DNA of 64,000 nt, taken from IMG/VR virus record IMGVR_UViG_3300045594_000116, positions 64,001-128,000 of that record, one strand, 5' to 3'. A program made the position numbers and the translations under genes. The DNA is from a virus. Taxonomy: Duplodnaviria; Caudoviricetes. The notes beneath the pieces were generated by a model, which was not told where the DNA came from, made no database searches, and was given only the letters and a program-made list of their open reading frames with translations. This document shows positions 6,105-64,000 of this stretch, piece after piece; position 1 is the first letter of the stretch; each line of letters opens with the position of its first letter.

Positions 6105-6279
6105 AAAGGATGATATACTAGCATACTTGGTATCATTTTATCAAGGCCGATTACTGCTGATAAACTTATCTAATTAACGCAAATAAGTTGAATTAGATAA
6201 GTAATTATTTAATACAGCCATAACTAAATAGTAAATCCATAGCGAATATATGGAGTAGAAATGAAAGGTGGAATACCAA

Positions 6280-7469: not shown

Positions 7470-7533
7470 GTCATTATCTCATATTTCAGTTATATATAAT
7501 ATAAGTGAATAAAGAATACGTAGCACAGAAAAT

Positions 7534-45579: not shown

Positions 45580-47433
45580 TTACTTGATTCCGATTATTCT
45601 TTTAAAAAGATCGATAGTGTAAAGTAACGTACTTCTACGAATCTTTACTCTATCATCAGAGAATGGACTATCCTGATATTCCTTAAGCATATCAAAGTTT
45701 CTATCATATTTCTGTACGATAGCCATATACTTTGTAATATCATTGATAATCTTTGCCCTAGCTTTATGATAATCCTGTATCTTCTTTTTACTACGTTCCT
45801 GATGGATTTTCTCCTCAAGAATCGTATTCAGATACCAAAGTTTGCAAAGGCAATATTTCATTCCTTCTACGTTCTTTGCTTTCTCATATTGTTTAAGAGC
45901 AAGATGTGTTGTAGAATACTCAGCTTCAAAGTCTACATCGAGACCCTTATCTATAAGAAGGTTTCCATCATCATCAAACTGAATAGGCCATTCTTTTGCT
46001 TCCATAATGCATGAGAATGAATCTATCAATGTATTCTCTGTTTTAGGAGCATTAGACTTGGAAAGCGAATCGATATAGCTCAATACCTTTGCCGCCGAAT
46101 ACTTCTTAGGTGATCCATAGAATACCTTATAGATGAATGCCGAATACTTCTTTTTCTTTACTGCTCTATTCAAACTTCCAGGAGATACCATATTAGAACC
46201 AATCTTAGTGATATCTACATCTGCAAGCTTGAGCATGCTATCCACAAACTGAGAGCATACCATCTTTACGTTATCAACGTAATTGATATTGAGCGGTATA
46301 GTAATCAGATTGATAAGAGAGTAGTCAGCATGTGATTCTTTCAGCTTTTCTATCTTCTGCTTAAGCTTATTGTATCTTTCCTTAGATACAAATACTGCAT
46401 ATACTTGAATAGCTTTATCAGATGTGCGTTCTTTCAACGATTGTGCCTGAAACCCACCAGGGAAAGAGAAACTATACAAAGTTTTCATAGATGCATCAAA
46501 TGATAATGCTGAATGTGAGTATACTGACTTAGTAGCTATTCTAGTCAATTTATTGAAAAATGTCTCAGAATTGAAGAAAACTACGTATAGTGGGTACACA
46601 TCAAGGGAAGTCTCTGTAAACGCGTTTTTCGCATTTTTGACACTCTCAGATACATCCAAAATGGTGTAATTAGAAACTGATTCTGAGATGATCTTGCTAA
46701 CTCTTTTGCTGGCAAAGCGTTTAGTAGATTCATTATATTGTATTTCTGGATTCCATCCTAGATCAAGTATAGATTGCTTAACAGCATCTACATCTTTCTT
46801 ATCAGAAGTCTTAGAAAGTTTCATATACAGTTTCTTTAAAGTATTATCCCAATCGGTGTATCTGGACATGGTAGATCCAAATCCATTCAGCCTATTGCAA
46901 TAATGCTTATACCATTCCGCTGCATCCAAGTCAGTTTTGAATGCCTCTTTAGAGTACATAGGATTTTCACTCAAGTATGACACTCCAAGGTGCTCCATTT
47001 CGTTAGATGTGAAGTAAGGAGTGCCGAGAAATCTTACAGAATTATCGGCATCGACCCTATCAACTATATCTTCTGTAGCACATTCAGAAAGATACTTACT
47101 ACGAATATCAATAGGTTTCATAAGAGCTGCCGACTCAAGAGCCGGGCTGTATCTCTTATCAAACAAACTATCATTGATATCGTTCTTTAAGAATTCATGC
47201 GCCATTTTCTCATAGCGAGTTCTGTTATCAAAGTTAAATAACTCTATCGATTTCCAGTCAGATTCATGCTGAAAATCTATAGGCATTTCTTGATATGAAT
47301 TGAAGTCCTGCTTAAGCGATTTAAAATCTGGATACTTACTATACAGAAGAATCTTATTGTTACCAATACGCCATTTCTTAACTTCTCTATCGCCAAGCTC
47401 TACATGCTTGATTTCTTCATCAATGTTTAACAT
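45580..47433 (-). CDS. Virion-type protein containing a permuted papain-like (NlpC/P60, YiiX/YaeF-like) domain
   Basis: YSHSALSFD (~46510) precedes Y.L..MVCSQFV..SPG.L (~46250), the His-before-Cys order of permuted NlpC/P60; start MLNIDEE at 47433 after GGTGG. Confidence 0.65.
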   Translation of the reverse strand: MLNIDEEIKHVELGDREVKKWRIGNNKILLYSKYPDFKSLKQDFNSYQEMPIDFQHESDWKSIELFNFDNRTRYEKMAHEFLKNDINDSLFDKRYSPALESAALMKPIDIRSKYLSECATEDIVDRVDADNSVRFLGTPYFTSNEMEHLGVSYLSENPMYSKEAFKTDLDAAEWYKHYCNRLNGFGSTMSRYTDWDNTLKKLYMKLSKTSDKKDVDAVKQSILDLGWNPEIQYNESTKRFASKRVSKIISESVSNYTILDVSESVKNAKNAFTETSLDVYPLYVVFFNSETFFNKLTRIATKSVYSHSALSFDASMKTLYSFSFPGGFQAQSLKERTSDKAIQVYAVFVSKERYNKLKQKIEKLKESHADYSLINLITIPLNINYVDNVKMVCSQFVDSMLKLADVDITKIGSNMVSPGSLNRAVKKKKYSAFIYKVFYGSPKKYSAAKVLSYIDSLSKSNAPKTENTLIDSFSCIMEAKEWPIQFDDDGNLLIDKGLDVDFEAEYSTTHLALKQYEKAKNVEGMKYCLCKLWYLNTILEEKIHQERSKKKIQDYHKARAKIINDITKYMAIVQKYDRNFDMLKEYQDSPFSDDRVKIRRSTLLYTIDLFKRIIGIK

Positions 47434-50400
47434 TTTTCTTAGCCACCACCTTAGCTGGAATATCTTTGATCCTCTGGTAATATGCTGTACGCATTCCAGT
47501 CTTTGCGTTCTTAGCATAGACACCATACTGATTCTCCATCACTACGACATCTTTCAATCCTTCAGTGATAGCATCTGCTTCTTTAATCATATGAGGATTA
47601 GTAAGAGGGAATTCATGATCTTTCTTACCCTTAATAGACTTAAGCTGCTCAGCTACAGTCTGTAGATATGAGGTAGCTTCAGATCCAATATCAATTGGAG
47701 ATACCTCTGTACATGATTCATCACAAAGAATCTGATCATCTGATAACAGCTTCTTTCCAGTAAGGGCTTCATATATGAATCCTCTAGGTTGAACAGTTCC
47801 TATAGCATTTTCGATAATACGTAATCCTTCTGGATCAGATCTGAATTGGAATACACGAAGCTTTCTTCCTTTTAAGAACTCCTCCGTATTCTCTTTCTTC
47901 ACCATACCAGATTTGTCTTGCGTAAGAATATTCTTAGTCAGGATATCATTGGAGACTGCATATCCTTCTACATTCATATCCATGATTCCAGTACCAGTAT
48001 CACGATGTACTGGTCCGTACTGGGTTACATATGATAAGTCAGGTGCAGGTGTCATCCCACCAGGGCCTGCAAACTCATTCAAGTCCATATCTGCTCCTTC
48101 CCGAATAGCATCCCGATGATTGAAGTAGAAGTCAATTGCCTCTTCATGCTCCGCTCTCCAATCAATGGTATCTACTCCAACATATTTTGCTTTCTGATAG
48201 AAATCGTCTTTGTCGACGTCCTCTATATGACCAGTAAACTTCTTAGCGTATTCTGCTACGAATATGAATGTAAGACTGCCTTCGTATTTCAATCCCAGTG
48301 GCCAAAGTTTCTTCTTTTGCCATTCAGGATATTTTCCTTCATAATTCTGGAAGTAAGTCATTCCAGTATATGATCTATTCTTAGTTACGACTAAGGCCTC
48401 TTCATTGCATTCAGCCTCAGCTTGCTCATCTAATGCTCTGCCTTTATCTAATCCACCACCAGGAAGTTTATAGTTGGTTCCATACTTGTTAAGATTCTTA
48501 GGATCTTGCATTTCTACAAGTACATCCCCATGCTTATCGAATATAAGAGTTTCTACTCTTACACGATACTGCTTGTTGTCATACATGATATAAGGATTAT
48601 CTATACCTTCAGCAGACTTAATATATTTGATATCTTTCGGCTTAGGAATAGGAACTAAATTTGCTTCCATTGCGATAGAATCTCTGTAGGTATTCATAGG
48701 TGGAACAGGCATAGGAATAAGTTCCATCCACTCTGTATCCATATTATATGCAACTAAGAATATCTTCTCTATCTCATCCTCTCCAAAGAGAATCAGATAA
48801 GATAACCAAAGATCTTTAGCCATCTGAATATGCATAATACCAGAGTAGGTAAAGAGTTTATCTCTCATAGTATCTACTAACCCATTACCGGTAGCCATAG
48901 ATTGAATATAGTTACAAAGCTGATTAGCATTGTATCTCTTATCTGCATCAGTATCTTTAGGATTGAAGATGATAAGGAACTCATATTCCTTTCCAGCTTT
49001 TTCATAGAAAGAAGCAGTAGCCTTGCCGATGATACTAAAGAATTTCTCGCTAGGATCGAACCATTCTTTGAATCTATCCTTTCCAGCACATGCCAGATTA
49101 GCAAGAAGAATCTCAGCCCCTTCAGACTTTGGAGAGATAAAGTAGTTTATACGTTCTTTATGTTCTACTCCTACAGATTCTATCAATGATTCATAGTTAG
49201 GATCTGTGCTATGATATTCTCCTTCATAAGTAGATACTGATTCCTGCATACCAACGTTATCTATAACGATGGTTCCAGTGTCATATATGTGATTCATATA
49301 TTTAACGGTTGTAAGACCAAATTTTCTAGATGGTTTATACTTCATAAGAAGATTTGGCATCTTTTCTTCATTAAGTTTACTTACGTATACAGCTATCATA
49401 TCTTGCTCATTGTCAAAACAATGAACTCCTTTAAAGCTATACCATGAAGATTCTACCACGTAAACTTTATTACCTTTCATACATGCTACCCATGTATGTG
49501 TAGGATTAACTCCATCATCACTATTGAATTGATGATAGTATAATGAATATTTACCATTGCTTAAATCTGCAGTGGTATTTTTATATCCCATTTTCTCTAG
49601 ATACTTAGCTTCATAGTCTGCATAATCCCAGCATATACCATATCCAAGCTTTTCAAATTCAGCCGGAGACTTAGTTTTATAATCTTTAAAGTAGTCATCC
49701 CTCTCTTCATAAGAGAAGTTTGCCTCTAAATTATTATATAACCTTACCAATTCCTTAGGACCTTTGGCAGGTTTTGCGTTTTCTAATACCATATTATTAT
49801 CACCTCTATAATTATAATATATAGGTGAAAGGTTAGTTGACTCTCCTTCATAAGTAGATACCGAGTCATCGAGTTCTCCAGATTCCATCATAGAATCATT
49901 CGTCCTATTAAACCAATCTGATGCAGCATATATCAACTTAGCTTTTATAGACTTTGGAAGGTGCGTTAGCTTTTCCTTCAAGTTGTCGTACATATCGTTA
50001 TGCATCTCAGGATTTGGAGAATCGTATTTGCAAATAAGAGATGGCATATACTTAGATTTGAACATCATATCATCTCTAAATATCTTTTTATCTCCATAGA
50101 ATTTATCATAGATTGGATACTCCTTGGTATCCTGGATAGCTGCAAAATATTTAATATCACATAAATCATTGTCGCTAGCTTTTCCTATGATATTCTTTAC
50201 ACTCATAACATGCTTCTTCATCATCTTAAGTTGTTCATTTCTTACATCTTCAGGCTTAGAGTATGGGCCCTTCATTCCATAAGAACGTTTCCCTTGATAA
50301 TTAAAAACATAGTACAATCCATCTTTTTCTTTATAGATGCACATAAAGTGCTGGAACATATGATACTCTTTATCTCCATACTTACGGAAGTATTTGGAAG

Positions 50401-52828
50401 TCCTAAGGATATAGTTTTCGATATGTTTACGTTCGCAGAAGAAATGCATGAGCAAAGCAAAGTCGATACACGTTCCAAGCTTCGTTCTCAATATATCATC
50501 AGGCCAATAGAAATGTATTCCTTTGCTACGGTCTTTAGCATTAAACTCTTTAGGCCAATCACACTGATTCACCTTAACCCAATTAAGAACGTCGGTTGGA
50601 GATTGCATGTCCTTACAGAAGGCATCGAAGCTAGTATACTTCTTTTTGTATCTATCAATACCAGATTCATTGATGGTAGACTCTCCAAATATTCCTTTTA
50701 TAGATTTGAGTATGCTGCTCAACTTGATTTTATCTAGTTTAGAAAGAACCTCATCGAGCCACGTAATCTTATCAGTATGGCATTCTTTATTCACCTTAGC
50801 AAACATATCCCAAATTTCAGGTATACGTTTAACTATCTCTGCTTGGGTGGCATACCTATCATTATAATAATCATCATATACATTCAGATTTTCTTTTTGT
50901 ATACGAGAAAACACCTTTTTAGCATGATACTTTCCAGGCATCAGTTTTAAGAAAAGAGAAGTGATGTAGAAATAATACTTTTTATATGCCGCTTCTGCTT
51001 CTTCGTATGAGCCAAATGGTCCCTGGAGTGAACCTTCATTGTTAGCACGATAATTAAAGATATAGACTCCAGAATCTTTTATTTTGTATAGGCATACTAT
51101 ATGACCTAAATACTTAGTATCTTTATCATTAGTCGCTATAGTTCCTATATACAGCATTCTATTTTCTATGCTATTACGATTACAAAGCAGACGCATAAAG
51201 ATGGCATGATCGAAGCAAATTCCAGCATGATTTTTGATTATTTCATCAGGCCAAGCTACGATAACATCATCTTCATTCGTACTATGAATGGCTAATCTTC
51301 TTTTTACCCTCTCATCTTGCGTAAACCATCTGATATTATTTACGTTATACCAGTCATTCAATTCACTAGGAGTTTTGATAGATTTACATAAATCATTAAA
51401 CCCAGAATACCTTTTGGTAAACTTACTACCTACAGTTTCATCAATAAGATTCTCTTCAAACATATCATCTCTCATACGATTTGTAATAGAGATATAGTTC
51501 CTATACCCATTTACTATCTTAGGAATTCTTTTCATTGCTAAACTTGGCGTTCCATAGTCTCTTTTGATTCTACGGATTATAGACGTAGTTAATGAAGTTC
51601 CCTTGATGACAAAAGCAGCATTGTTAAGTAATGGAGAATGATATTCATACATATCCAGTATAAAAGCTCCCTCTATTACAAATCTTTCATTAGAGCCTAT
51701 AATAAACTTGATATAGTCTTCCATAAGCTTTTTACGAAAGATCTTATCATACTTTACCTTTTTAGCAATATTAGTATTTACTTTAGTATCACCGTACCAA
51801 TCTTCCATTCTCCATGGAATTTTATCTGCTGGAATACTATCAGCATCGGTTAGCCACCAGAGTATTTTATCAGTATCTATATGATGAGCATCATATTCAT
51901 CTGACAATTCTTCCGATAACGTGGATTTACCACTTCCAGATAATCCCACCATATAAAGTACAGAAAGTTCTTTATTTTTCCACGCATCCAAATTCAATAC
52001 TAAGTCTTTTTCTGAAAAGATGATAGGAGTGCCTTCTTGCAGCATATTTACTTCTTCATTGACATTGATGATGACCTTCTTATTCTCTTCACTATCATCA
52101 ATCATCTGAGCTTTCAATTCTGCTACGATACCAAGCAGCTGGCTGAAATCGTTATCAGTCAATCTAAGGTAGTTGAATTTACCCATATTGGTAATCATCT
52201 GCTCTTTGGCTAACTGCTTTTCTCTATAAGAAACCATCTCTCTGTTATTAGGATTGCTGCCTCCATCCTTAACTTCAATCACAAGATTGAATGGGATAAG
52301 AAGGATATCGGTAATCCATTTAAGTTTCTTTCCTTTGTAGATATATTCTATCGTAGGCCCAGGAGAGAGAATATCAGTGCTTTTGAATCCCATCACTTTA
52401 TCCATGAATTCAAGAGCCTTCTCTTCGTATTTACCAGTAAATACATGATATCCACCATCAGTGAATTTATACTTACCAGATATACGTCTGTTAGCCAGCA
52501 TCTTTTCTTGCTGCTCTGGGTCATCAAGAAGAGTAGTCTTACCATGTACTCTAAGCATATTCTTCTTATAAGCATCTCGCAAAGCTTTCTGGCACTGTGG
52601 TCTACCACAGAGCCGATCATATTTGCAAGCTGTTTCATTCCATTTCGTTGGTCTCTTGCATACAACGCAAGTACCATGATCTTTATGATTGATAGTGTTG
52701 AATACTATCTGATTCGCTGTCATACCTTTTGGAATGCATTCCTCATGCTCTTCCTCAATATGAGATCCTAAGTTTTCTCTAGTAGCTCTATAGCTGCAAA
52801 AGGGACACTTATACGTTTTCGTACTCAT
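47420..52828 (-). CDS. 1802-aa multi-enzyme protein: Zn finger, PD-(D/E)XK-like, P-loop kinase, three transglutaminase-like domains, Nudix hydrolase
   Basis: CPFC..H...H; TDILL..VIEVKDG; GLSGSGKST; GICFDHA/GHIVC, GTCIDFA/QHFMC, GICWDYA/THTWV; LPGGGLDKG..AEAECNEEA (Nudix box variant). GGGAGG RBS; late motif GACA tactag TAA at 52852-52864. Confidence 0.75.
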   Translation of the reverse strand: MSTKTYKCPFCSYRATRENLGSHIEEEHEECIPKGMTANQIVFNTINHKDHGTCVVCKRPTKWNETACKYDRLCGRPQCQKALRDAYKKNMLRVHGKTTLLDDPEQQEKMLANRRISGKYKFTDGGYHVFTGKYEEKALEFMDKVMGFKSTDILSPGPTIEYIYKGKKLKWITDILLIPFNLVIEVKDGGSNPNNREMVSYREKQLAKEQMITNMGKFNYLRLTDNDFSQLLGIVAELKAQMIDDSEENKKVIINVNEEVNMLQEGTPIIFSEKDLVLNLDAWKNKELSVLYMVGLSGSGKSTLSEELSDEYDAHHIDTDKILWWLTDADSIPADKIPWRMEDWYGDTKVNTNIAKKVKYDKIFRKKLMEDYIKFIIGSNERFVIEGAFILDMYEYHSPLLNNAAFVIKGTSLTTSIIRRIKRDYGTPSLAMKRIPKIVNGYRNYISITNRMRDDMFEENLIDETVGSKFTKRYSGFNDLCKSIKTPSELNDWYNVNNIRWFTQDERVKRRLAIHSTNEDDVIVAWPDEIIKNHAGICFDHAIFMRLLCNRNSIENRMLYIGTIATNDKDTKYLGHIVCLYKIKDSGVYIFNYRANNEGSLQGPFGSYEEAEAAYKKYYFYITSLFLKLMPGKYHAKKVFSRIQKENLNVYDDYYNDRYATQAEIVKRIPEIWDMFAKVNKECHTDKITWLDEVLSKLDKIKLSSILKSIKGIFGESTINESGIDRYKKKYTSFDAFCKDMQSPTDVLNWVKVNQCDWPKEFNAKDRSKGIHFYWPDDILRTKLGTCIDFALLMHFFCERKHIENYILRTSKYFRKYGDKEYHMFQHFMCIYKEKDGLYYVFNYQGKRSYGMKGPYSKPEDVRNEQLKMMKKHVMSVKNIIGKASDNDLCDIKYFAAIQDTKEYPIYDKFYGDKKIFRDDMMFKSKYMPSLICKYDSPNPEMHNDMYDNLKEKLTHLPKSIKAKLIYAASDWFNRTNDSMMESGELDDSVSTYEGESTNLSPIYYNYRGDNNMVLENAKPAKGPKELVRLYNNLEANFSYEERDDYFKDYKTKSPAEFEKLGYGICWDYADYEAKYLEKMGYKNTTADLSNGKYSLYYHQFNSDDGVNPTHTWVACMKGNKVYVVESSWYSFKGVHCFDNEQDMIAVYVSKLNEEKMPNLLMKYKPSRKFGLTTVKYMNHIYDTGTIVIDNVGMQESVSTYEGEYHSTDPNYESLIESVGVEHKERINYFISPKSEGAEILLANLACAGKDRFKEWFDPSEKFFSIIGKATASFYEKAGKEYEFLIIFNPKDTDADKRYNANQLCNYIQSMATGNGLVDTMRDKLFTYSGIMHIQMAKDLWLSYLILFGEDEIEKIFLVAYNMDTEWMELIPMPVPPMNTYRDSIAMEANLVPIPKPKDIKYIKSAEGIDNPYIMYDNKQYRVRVETLIFDKHGDVLVEMQDPKNLNKYGTNYKLPGGGLDKGRALDEQAEAECNEEALVVTKNRSYTGMTYFQNYEGKYPEWQKKKLWPLGLKYEGSLTFIFVAEYAKKFTGHIEDVDKDDFYQKAKYVGVDTIDWRAEHEEAIDFYFNHRDAIREGADMDLNEFAGPGGMTPAPDLSYVTQYGPVHRDTGTGIMDMNVEGYAVSNDILTKNILTQDKSGMVKKENTEEFLKGRKLRVFQFRSDPEGLRIIENAIGTVQPRGFIYEALTGKKLLSDDQILCDESCTEVSPIDIGSEATSYLQTVAEQLKSIKGKKDHEFPLTNPHMIKEADAITEGLKDVVVMENQYGVYAKNAKTGMRTAYYQRIKDIPAKVVAKKNVKH
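49218..49861. repeat. 20-bp direct repeats (TCTCCTTCATAAGTAGATAC) at 49218-49237 and 49842-49861 flanking the third transglutaminase-like module
   Basis: Exact match 624 bp apart (208 codons); encodes VSTYEGE twice. Confidence 0.9.
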
Positions 52829-52958
52829 TGTTGGAATCCTCCCTTGTAAGTTTACTAGTATGTCAGATAGGCCTAATTTGACATATCCAGTAATATAAAT
52901 TATTTTTGCGTATAAATTAACTACTCAAACTTTATTAGTAATAAATGGAGGTAATCAT

Positions 52959-63196: not shown

Positions 63197-64000
63197 ATGA
63201 GCAGTATGTTTGATAGTTTACGCTATATAGTAAATGAAAAGATCACCGTAAATGGGCAGCCACTTGGGGATGATACAGCTGATGGCGAGGAGGAACCTAA
63301 ATATGATGACGACCCTAATCAAGATCCAGCAGCGCCAGATGACAATGGAGGCACTAATGCAGACAATACACCAGCTGAGCCGGCACCGGCTGCTGATGCC
63401 ACTGGCGATGCTGCTAATGATGCTACTTCAGCACCTGATCAAGCACCAGATACGGCGAATGCTCCGGATGACACTGCGGCTGAGCCAGAACCCGCTGGCG
63501 AAGATCAACCCAATGACCAAACGAATGCACCAGATAATACTGCGGATGCAGGTGATGCTGACGCTACTGGGGATGAACCACCAGTATACGATGATGACCC
63601 TAATGCAGAAGACGATACCGATGGAGGCTTAGACGCTGGAGACACTGGTGCAGATGATACAGCTGCAGATGCTCCGGATGCTGGTACAGACCAAGCCGCT
63701 ACTGATACACCACCAGAAGAGGCAGGAGCGGCTCCTGCCACTGGTGGAGATGATACTGGGGATGAACCGCCAACATATGACGACGATCCTAATGCTGAAG
63801 ACGATGCACCAGCCGACGACGGTACAGATCCTCAAGAAGGAGGAGATGACAATGGGCAGGGCGCTGAGGACGGTGGAGAGGAACCGCCAACATATGACGA
63901 CGATCCTAACGCAGAAGATGGCGAAGGTGACGACGGACAAGAAGCTGGAGATGACGGTGCTGGTGATACTGGCGATGCAGCTCCTGCTGATGGTGTGGAT
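63197..64000 (+). CDS. Highly acidic Asp/Ala/Gly/Pro-rich protein (partial, runs off window)
   Basis: AAGGAGG RBS, MSSMFDSLRYIVNEKITVNG..., open to the window end; four (E/D)EPxxYDDDPN-type repeats. Not in ORF track. Confidence 0.8.
   Translation, partial: MSSMFDSLRYIVNEKITVNGQPLGDDTADGEEEPKYDDDPNQDPAAPDDNGGTNADNTPAEPAPAADATGDAANDATSAPDQAPDTANAPDDTAAEPEPAGEDQPNDQTNAPDNTADAGDADATGDEPPVYDDDPNAEDDTDGGLDAGDTGADDTAADAPDAGTDQAATDTPPEEAGAAPATGGDDTGDEPPTYDDDPNAEDDAPADDGTDPQEGGDDNGQGAEDGGEEPPTYDDDPNAEDGEGDDGQEAGDDGAGDTGDAAPADGVD

Follow-up and report, generated by a model that had tools for sequence, protein, structure and literature searches.

Here, we describe a gene in a 64,000-bp stretch of viral DNA (hereafter the window), which corresponds to bases 64001-128000 of the 229.5-kb virus record IMGVR_UViG_3300045594_000116. 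The gene encodes a multi-enzyme protein of 1802 aa (P0001; hereafter the gene is called the polyprotein gene) and contains, between two exact 20-bp direct repeats, a unit encoding the third transglutaminase-like domain of this protein (domain 3). We consider it probable (roughly 0.6) that this is a modular gene of the polyvalent type remodeled by recombination at short linker repeats, and that the domain-3 module came from an independent early gene. The record is 91% complete, with a GC content of 38.9%, and its source virus is an AR9-like jumbo phage; the early promoter consensus used in its genome is of the AR9 type, in common with Bacillus phage AR9. A megablast search against phage records returned no matches.

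Domain 3 as a Discrete Module

From the N- to the C-terminus, P0001 comprises a Zn-finger endonuclease (residues 1-265; phrog_15137, 2.5e-43), a P-loop kinase (approximately residues 266-455; Pfam and PHROG), transglutaminase-like domains 1, 2, and 3, an unassigned domain, a Nudix domain (approximately residues 1421-1524; Pfam and PHROG), and a conserved C-terminal domain. These modules are compact domains connected by short disordered linkers. Domains 1 and 2 are paralogues (~27% identity), whereas domain 3 belongs to a distinct subfamily without BLAST similarity to either of them, and module-wise tblastn against the phage genome revealed no second copy of it elsewhere. The gene, the unit, and its borders are located as follows.

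47420-52828, minus strand: polyprotein gene, encoding P0001, 1802 aa (open reading frame, ORF, and its translation; Pfam, PHROG, and module-wise tblastn)
49842-49861, minus strand: upstream repeat copy (in gene orientation), exact 20-bp direct repeat encoding VSTYEGE (residues 990-996) in a disordered linker (AlphaFold2, AF2; predicted local distance difference test score, pLDDT, below 50, residues 975-1017)
49238-49771, minus strand: transglutaminase-like (papain-fold) domain 3, residues ~1020-1197, with conserved C1066, H1111, and E1126 (Pfam, AF2, alignment A2, and Foldseek)
49218-49237, minus strand: downstream repeat copy, exact 20-bp direct repeat encoding VSTYEGE (residues 1198-1204), immediately past the folded domain

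The exact 20-mer GTATCTACTTATGAAGGAGA occurs twice in the 64-kb window, both times on the minus strand and 624 bp apart, where shuffled sequences lead us to expect 0.01 copies. A first-pass annotation of this DNA had described the two copies as bracketing domain 3, and both the coordinates and the sequences hold. The match can be extended to 24 of 26 nt, and the unit of 624 bp between the repeats keeps the frame of the gene. The longest exact direct repeat of the native gene is 20 nt, compared with a maximum of 18 nt, and usually 12-13 nt, in 300 codon-shuffled versions of it. Given the codon usage of the genome, two independent encodings of VSTYEG would coincide at every base with a probability of 0.002, and the base-identical repeats therefore point to a common recent DNA ancestry, beyond likeness of the peptides alone. 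VSTYEGE is absent from the rest of the proteome, being confined to the polyprotein gene. The same repeats and the same signals described below are found in a second assembly, IMGVR_UViG_3300042975_000100, and this agreement between independent assemblies excludes an assembly artefact.

Scanning viral contigs with the 20-mer recovered this sister contig alone, and scanning metagenome contigs gave seven matches, all of them due to chance and unrelated, with no relative encoded. No recombination-site structure is evident at the repeats, which are plain linker-coding sequence with a weak hairpin in the local RNA fold. No recombinase was matched among the neighboring ORFs; the genome as a whole was not searched for one. 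Two other sources of such a structure were discarded. Tandem duplication does not account for the repeats, since domain 3 is unlike domains 1 and 2 and has no paralogue in the genome. An intein or a self-splicing intron is not compatible with the nature of the insert, a transglutaminase-like domain homologous to free proteins in which no Rfam family was matched.

Other module borders show shorter likenesses. Domain 2 is edged by an 8-nt repeat, GAATCTGG (INE-SG … MME-SG; 50687-50710 and 49863-49883, minus strand), which may be due to chance, and GGAGAGTC-AC (GEST.N) is common to the left edges of domains 2 and 3. The linkers of the polyprotein gene are therefore alike in pairs.

Domain 3 matches Pfam family PF01841 with 30.8 bits over residues 1021-1081 (cut-off, 23 bits). 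H1111 never varies in an alignment of 35 family members (A2), and at least 90% of these sequences retain C1066 and E1126. The AF2 model has a pLDDT of 88-98 over the domain and above 90 in its core, so that a confident compact fold lies between two disordered segments, residues 975-1017 and those beyond 1198. Foldseek related this fold to LapG, CPR-C4 protease, vasohibins, and arylamine N-acetyltransferases (probability 0.9-1.0, with E-values of only ~4e-3).

An exhaustive HMMER search recovered 338 homologues of domain 3. Among the 150 homologues listed, about half are stand-alone proteins of 170-230 aa, and the remainder have the domain embedded anywhere in proteins of 300-2800 aa. The N-termini of the stand-alone members coincide in alignment A2 with M1013 of P0001 to within a few residues, and their C-termini lie at or just past the second repeat. 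At 20 jumbo-phage loci the domain is stand-alone (four loci), N-terminal in proteins of 545-1896 aa (five loci), or otherwise internal or C-terminal. P0006, with 430 aa, consists of domain 3 followed by a C-terminal domain of the P0001 type. These data support the view that the repeats delimit a discrete evolutionary module, equal in extent to a full stand-alone gene family.

The base composition of the unit is also distinctive. Its GC content at third codon positions (GC3) is 0.249, compared with 0.398 in domain 2, 0.323 in the following domain, and a genome mean of 0.37, which places it in the lowest 1.3% of 201-codon windows of the genome. The GC3 of the kinase module, which is polymorphic (see below), is likewise low (0.272). 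A low GC3 would fit a foreign or separate origin of the cassette, but this evidence is weak on its own.

Gene-Start Signals inside the Unit

At the 5' end of the unit the minus strand reads CCTATATATTATAATTATAGAGGTGATAATAATATG, within which three features can be distinguished.

49803-49829, minus strand: early-promoter-like site, with upstream context TTCACCTA, a perfect core TATATTATA at 49813-49821, and A at +1 (N4-TAG) (promoter matrix)
49807-49818, minus strand: tandem hexamer ATTATA-ATTATA within the promoter-like site; removing one copy gives the consensus spacing to GAGG-TGATAA
49790-49806, minus strand: Shine-Dalgarno (SD) sequence GAGGTGAT (49799-49806), a 6-nt spacer, and the in-frame ATG of M1013 (49790-49792) (duplex energy)

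Of the 42 copies of TATATTATA in the genome, 35 lie between genes, and a downstream N4-TG(R) is conserved; the number of copies, their intergenic bias, and this downstream motif indicate a genuine signal in this phage. We derived a promoter matrix of 27 positions from 32 intergenic reference sites, at 31 of which the core is followed by N4-TG, mostly TGA (the genome-wide statistics on promoters and gene starts rest on a crude longest-ORF call of 208 genes). The internal site scores 19.9 bits, ranking 39th in the genome and first among the sites within ORFs, and codon-shuffled ORFs yield only 0.01 sites of this strength per genome. Its core is a perfect 9-mer, and six of its eight upstream positions hold a base that is common among the reference sites. 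The early-promoter core followed by N4-TAG is thus present as first described. Over 28 nt, the site matches a genuine promoter at 6199-6227 of the genome by 93%. The gene at that look-alike promoter (genome 6215) was considered as a possible donor and rejected, the downstream gene being unrelated.

In AR9 the early promoter consensus, AAATATATATTAT-N6-G(+1), was mapped by differential RNA sequencing and primer extension, and the virion RNA polymerase is reportedly sensitive to single deviations from it (PMC5312081). Removing one ATTATA in silico raises the score of the internal site from 19.9 to 26.2 bits. The tandem hexamer may thus be a 6-bp in-frame duplication that disabled a once-perfect promoter.

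The ribosome-binding site GAGGTG (49801-49806, minus strand) and the in-frame ATG at codon 1013, also proposed by the first-pass annotation, were both confirmed. The duplex of this SD sequence with the 3' end of 16S rRNA has an energy of -13.1 kcal/mol, the strongest among 1925 in-frame internal ATGs; real gene starts have a median of -10.0 kcal/mol, and internal ATGs a first percentile of -10.4 kcal/mol. Because both the SD sequence and the ATG are strong, internal initiation at M1013 is plausible on any mRNA that carries them. In the full-length RNA, the SD sequence is predicted to pair, weakly, with a CACCU upstream of the promoter core (49795-49830 of the window, minus strand; z = -1.8), an arm that a transcript begun at the internal site would lack.

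The ~30-residue leader encoded by the promoter and SD region is disordered according to AF2 and is not conserved in P0004, a homologue with domain 3. Constraint on the protein therefore does not explain the nucleotide motifs.

Alleles and Relatives

One relative of the gene, encoding P0002, is the allele of the sister record IMGVR_UViG_3300042975_000100, a 99%-identical phage, with 98.4% DNA identity across the gene. It retains the domain-3 unit, both repeats, and identical signals. What it lacks is the P-loop kinase module, through a clean in-frame indel of 582 bp (window versus L005:8790-8800; P0001 versus P0002) with breakpoints falling in an imperfect repeat encoding MLQE and MFEE.

51457-52038, minus strand: polymorphic kinase cassette, 582 bp, flanked by the imperfect repeat ATATGCTGCAAGA / ATATGTTTGAAGA (MLQE / MFEE) (gene alignment versus L005)

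A second relative, P0003 (1276 aa, from a Logan assembly), bears directly on the domain-3 unit. It shares 96-98% identity with P0001 over the endonuclease and over the whole part past the second repeat; between these flanks it has a GNAT module and a domain 1 with 77% identity to that of P0001, and then reads GIFGES-AP-LDDSVSTYEGE-YHSTD. It thus holds the four residues preceding the upstream repeat copy, one copy of the repeat, and the residues following the downstream copy. At the protein level, the junction LDDSVSTYEGE|YHSTD is the product expected from recombination between the 20-mers.

The alleles of the polyprotein gene encode proteins of 1802, 1608, and 1276 aa. More distant relatives consist of the endonuclease alone (260 aa) or have it combined with other sets of modules (483-1105 aa), and a kit of kinase, GNAT, Nudix, and transglutaminase-like domains is found in varying order across many relatives. 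Homologues of domain 3 occur in proteins that shuffle this same kit. Between close relatives, whole modules are present or absent; the reading frame is kept in every case, and the breakpoints invariably fall in the linkers. A scan of metagenomes with the domain that follows the cassette recovered no relative, and no shorter allele across the junction was recovered by a protein search, the other members of the cluster being end fragments. No synteny with AR9 was apparent, as the genes past the AR9 endonuclease are not homologous to modules of P0001.

Origin of the Domain-3 Unit

Taken together, we infer an origin of the unit as a free gene and its association with the polyprotein gene by recombination at the repeats; domain 3 would then be a comparatively recent unit of this gene. 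According to this reading, the unit was formerly an independent early gene, or was derived from one, and would have arrived with its promoter, ribosome-binding site, and start codon, which are now translated as the disordered leader. The two repeats would represent duplicated linker-coding sequence at which homologous recombination put the unit in, and recombination between them would remove it precisely, leaving a junction such as that of the natural relative P0003. The first-pass annotation had likewise proposed a formerly independent gene that was integrated by either short-homology or site-specific recombination. The limits of the module, the gene-start signals, the GC3, and the P0003 junction speak for the first part of this proposal, but its site-specific version finds no site structure to rest on. 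Either homologous or site-specific recombination would fit the data, with nothing pointing to the latter.

Several observations weigh against this reading. The internal promoter-like site has A at +1, whereas G is found at 31 of the 32 intergenic sites, and no internal promoter-like site was found in the polyproteins of more distant relatives. The best stand-alone homologue among the matches listed is only 47% identical to domain 3, and no closer donor of this kind was recovered. The closest homologue overall, P0004 (57%), has the domain fused behind a domain-2-like module, and the pair of domains 2 and 3 may thus be old and the state of P0003 a deletion. The empty junction of P0003 is known only from the protein. 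In addition, P0003 lacks domain 2, carries other modules, and has a domain 1 with no more than 77% identity, which makes it a mosaic rather than the product of a simple excision. An empty site with a single repeat copy, named by the first-pass annotation as a check, is thus seen at the protein level, but in a protein that differs from P0001 in more than the loss of the unit. Insertion and deletion are both compatible with these data.

The nested gene may, in addition, be functional, which is compatible with the origin favored here and which we regard as possible, if somewhat doubtful. The full-length protein would then be made from the outer promoter, and a protein of 790 aa (transglutaminase 3, the unknown domain, Nudix, and the C-terminal domain) would start at M1013, possibly at an earlier time of infection. 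Both signals are essentially preserved: the promoter-like site scores 19.9 bits, no internal SD sequence of the genome is stronger, and a transcript from the internal site would escape the weak predicted pairing (z = -1.8) between the SD sequence and CACCU. Proteins built like the predicted isoform occur naturally, given that domain 3 is N-terminal in large proteins and that P0006 has the same C-terminal domain. In AR9, the g044 early promoter is active in spite of deviating at the start point, and 13 internal late promoters are thought to yield N-terminally truncated proteins; on the other hand, the AR9 g057 promoter, one base off the consensus, is silent (PMC5312081). The A at +1, in contrast with the G of 31 of the 32 intergenic copies, and the lack of such internal sites in related polyproteins also argue against function. 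Judging from its sequence, the internal promoter, without G at +1, is more likely weakened or dead.

A stronger version of the favored origin would be a reversible in-frame capture of genes at linker repeats, with working signals, by which the enzyme would be made early in a free or truncated form and late within a packaged, protease-cut polyprotein. We consider this rather unlikely. If it were true, the locus would be an integron-like cassette system for proteins, acting within a reading frame.

It is improbable that the gene arose simply by fusion of neighbors, with an upstream gene (endonuclease-transglutaminase 2) losing its stop codon and reading into a gene that starts with transglutaminase 3, the repeats being unrelated. 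Large proteins that begin with a domain-3 module are common, the promoter, ribosome-binding site, and ATG are placed where an intergenic spacer would be, and AR9 has an early promoter directly past its stand-alone endonuclease gene: in the AR9 record, a promoter of the AAATATATATTAT-N6-G(+1) type is annotated beside this homologous gene. Nevertheless, a fusion leaves the exact 20-bp repeats without an explanation. Moreover, in P0003 the same linker leads to the unknown domain, Nudix, and the C-terminal domain with domain 3 missing, which shows that domain 3 can be separated from the downstream part.

Another explanation takes the two copies of VSTYEGE as linkers or cleavage sites, for a prohead protease or for the cysteine-peptidase domains of the protein itself, that were kept alike by selection or gene conversion, with the likeness to a promoter and a ribosome-binding site being an AT-rich accident. 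At every junction in P0001, the sequence x-x-E indeed precedes one of the residues S, T, G, or A (LQE|G, IDE|T, INE|S, MME|S, MQE|S, LIE|S, AME|A, and IRE|G), thus matching the sites of Glu-cutting prohead proteases such as those of T4, phiKZ, and SPN3US, which cleave after Glu at such motifs (PMC5694885). Both copies also lie in disordered segments (AF2), and P0003 retains one of them without domain 3. However, selection on the peptide would not produce 20 identical bases out of 20 (P = 0.002), VSTYEGE is found nowhere else in the proteome, and no other internal site in the genome exceeds the promoter-like site or the SD sequence in its class, both being located at the homologous N-terminus of free genes. 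We therefore regard this explanation as quite improbable. Cut sites in the linkers, if they exist, would explain why the linkers are alike and hence the homology available for recombination. Chance or an assembly artefact, finally, can be neglected given the shuffle controls and the second independent assembly.

Comparison with Known Systems

In-frame nested genes and internal initiation are known from phages, as in lambda C/Nu3, T7 4A/4B, and phiX174 A/A*. As in these cases, an SD sequence and an ATG in the same frame of a longer ORF would yield a shorter protein with an identical C-terminus. Unlike theirs, the internal start of P0001 lies at a module boundary, where the members of a free family have their N-terminus, and within a repeat-flanked indel; this points to capture rather than to an evolved overlap.

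Exchange of modules at short conserved motifs is likewise known from the swapping of T-even tail-fibre adhesins and from the boundary or linker sequences of lambdoid phages. The polyprotein gene resembles these systems in that short inter-module sequences appear to serve as crossover points and close relatives are mosaics with breakpoints at motifs; it differs in that the exchange takes place inside a multi-enzyme ORF without loss of the frame and that a single module is enclosed by two exact copies of a 20-mer.

Polyvalent proteins of phages and conjugative elements were defined as single polypeptides with 2 to 15 unrelated effector or enzyme domains, for which packaging, delivery, and proteolytic release were predicted (Iyer, Burroughs, Anand, de Souza, Aravind 2017; PMC5512222). 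P0001, encoded in a viral record, has an endonuclease, a P-loop kinase, three transglutaminase-like domains, and Nudix. Like polyvalent proteins, it gathers many unrelated enzyme domains in one phage polypeptide (nuclease, kinase, peptidase-fold, and Nudix, with GNAT in relatives), and its architecture varies among relatives, with the order of the domains being shuffled. On the other hand, its domain kit and the AR9-like phages have no match in the published catalogue, where transglutaminase and jumbo phages are unmentioned (PMC5512222). P0001 is also different in that one of its modules, enclosed by exact repeats, has retained expression signals like those of a free gene, which illustrates concretely how a module may be gained or lost. 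The sole hint of packaging is phiR1-37 g237, a homologue of the N-terminal domain that is annotated as 'phage structural protein'; no virion-protein matches were found among the genes neighboring the polyprotein gene.

The intergenic copies of the promoter motif agree with the early promoters of the AR9/phiKZ type used by virion RNA polymerase, with core TATATTAT and, at 31 of the 32 sites, the N6-G(+1) spacing (Lavysh et al. 2017; PMC5312081). The internal site shares the core TATATTAT and the upstream context, but it has A at +1, six nt past TATATTAT, and sits within an ORF.

Domain 3 has the fold and the conserved Cys-His-acid triad of the transglutaminase-like cysteine peptidases (LapG, CPR-C4 protease, and vasohibins; PF01841), whereas its sequence identity to the solved members is only 10-15%. 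By analogy, it could act as a peptidase, a deamidase, or an acyltransferase.

Shuffled domain orders are known for polyvalent and polyprotein genes of phages, and the entry of domains in frame has so far been inferred. Here, a single locus unites the module limits of a free gene, retained 5' signals that are read as linker, bracketing repeats, and the loss junction of a relative, and it looks like a snapshot of how giant phage proteins gain and lose parts. With two modules of one gene being polymorphic, domain accretion becomes directly testable. A strong internal SD sequence with an ATG and a promoter motif at a domain boundary may serve as a search rule for recent captures in phage genomes.

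Flanking Genes and Other Signals

A second strong internal SD sequence is present farther downstream in the polyprotein gene.

48086-48102, minus strand: SD sequence GGGAAGGAG and in-frame ATG of M1581, at the junction of the Nudix and C-terminal modules (-12.1 kcal/mol, rank 5 of 1925)

The N-terminus of P0004 is a homologue of the C-terminal module of P0001, the one that follows M1581. M1581 could likewise be a start codon that was kept or is in use.

Upstream of the polyprotein gene (52829-52958), no early promoter was found other than a near-miss, TATATTAC, with the wrong spacing. A late-type motif, GACA-N6-TA with one mismatch, is located ~25 nt before the SD sequence of the gene, and the motif AACA-N6-T[AG] is approximately threefold enriched upstream of genes in this phage; on this basis, assignment of the polyprotein gene to a late class would be tentative. 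A scan for sigma-70 promoters and terminators and a search of Rfam gave nothing exceeding background.

The next gene (45580-47526 as the longest ORF), whose product matches an enoyl-CoA hydratase-like PHROG, is likelier to start at the ATG 47431-47433, which is preceded by a strong SD sequence. With this start, it would overlap the final 14 nt of the polyprotein gene (47420-47433), which suggests translational coupling.

A repeat of ~50 nt (…TTCTGTGCTACGTATTCTTTATTCAC-TTATATTATA-TATAACTGAAAT) has four to five intergenic copies, located in the region of position 7495 of the window (genome 71493-71503) and at 63569, 150704, and 216512 of the genome. Its opposite strand reads as a promoter variant, TATATAATA-N4-TGAATA, of ~20 bits.

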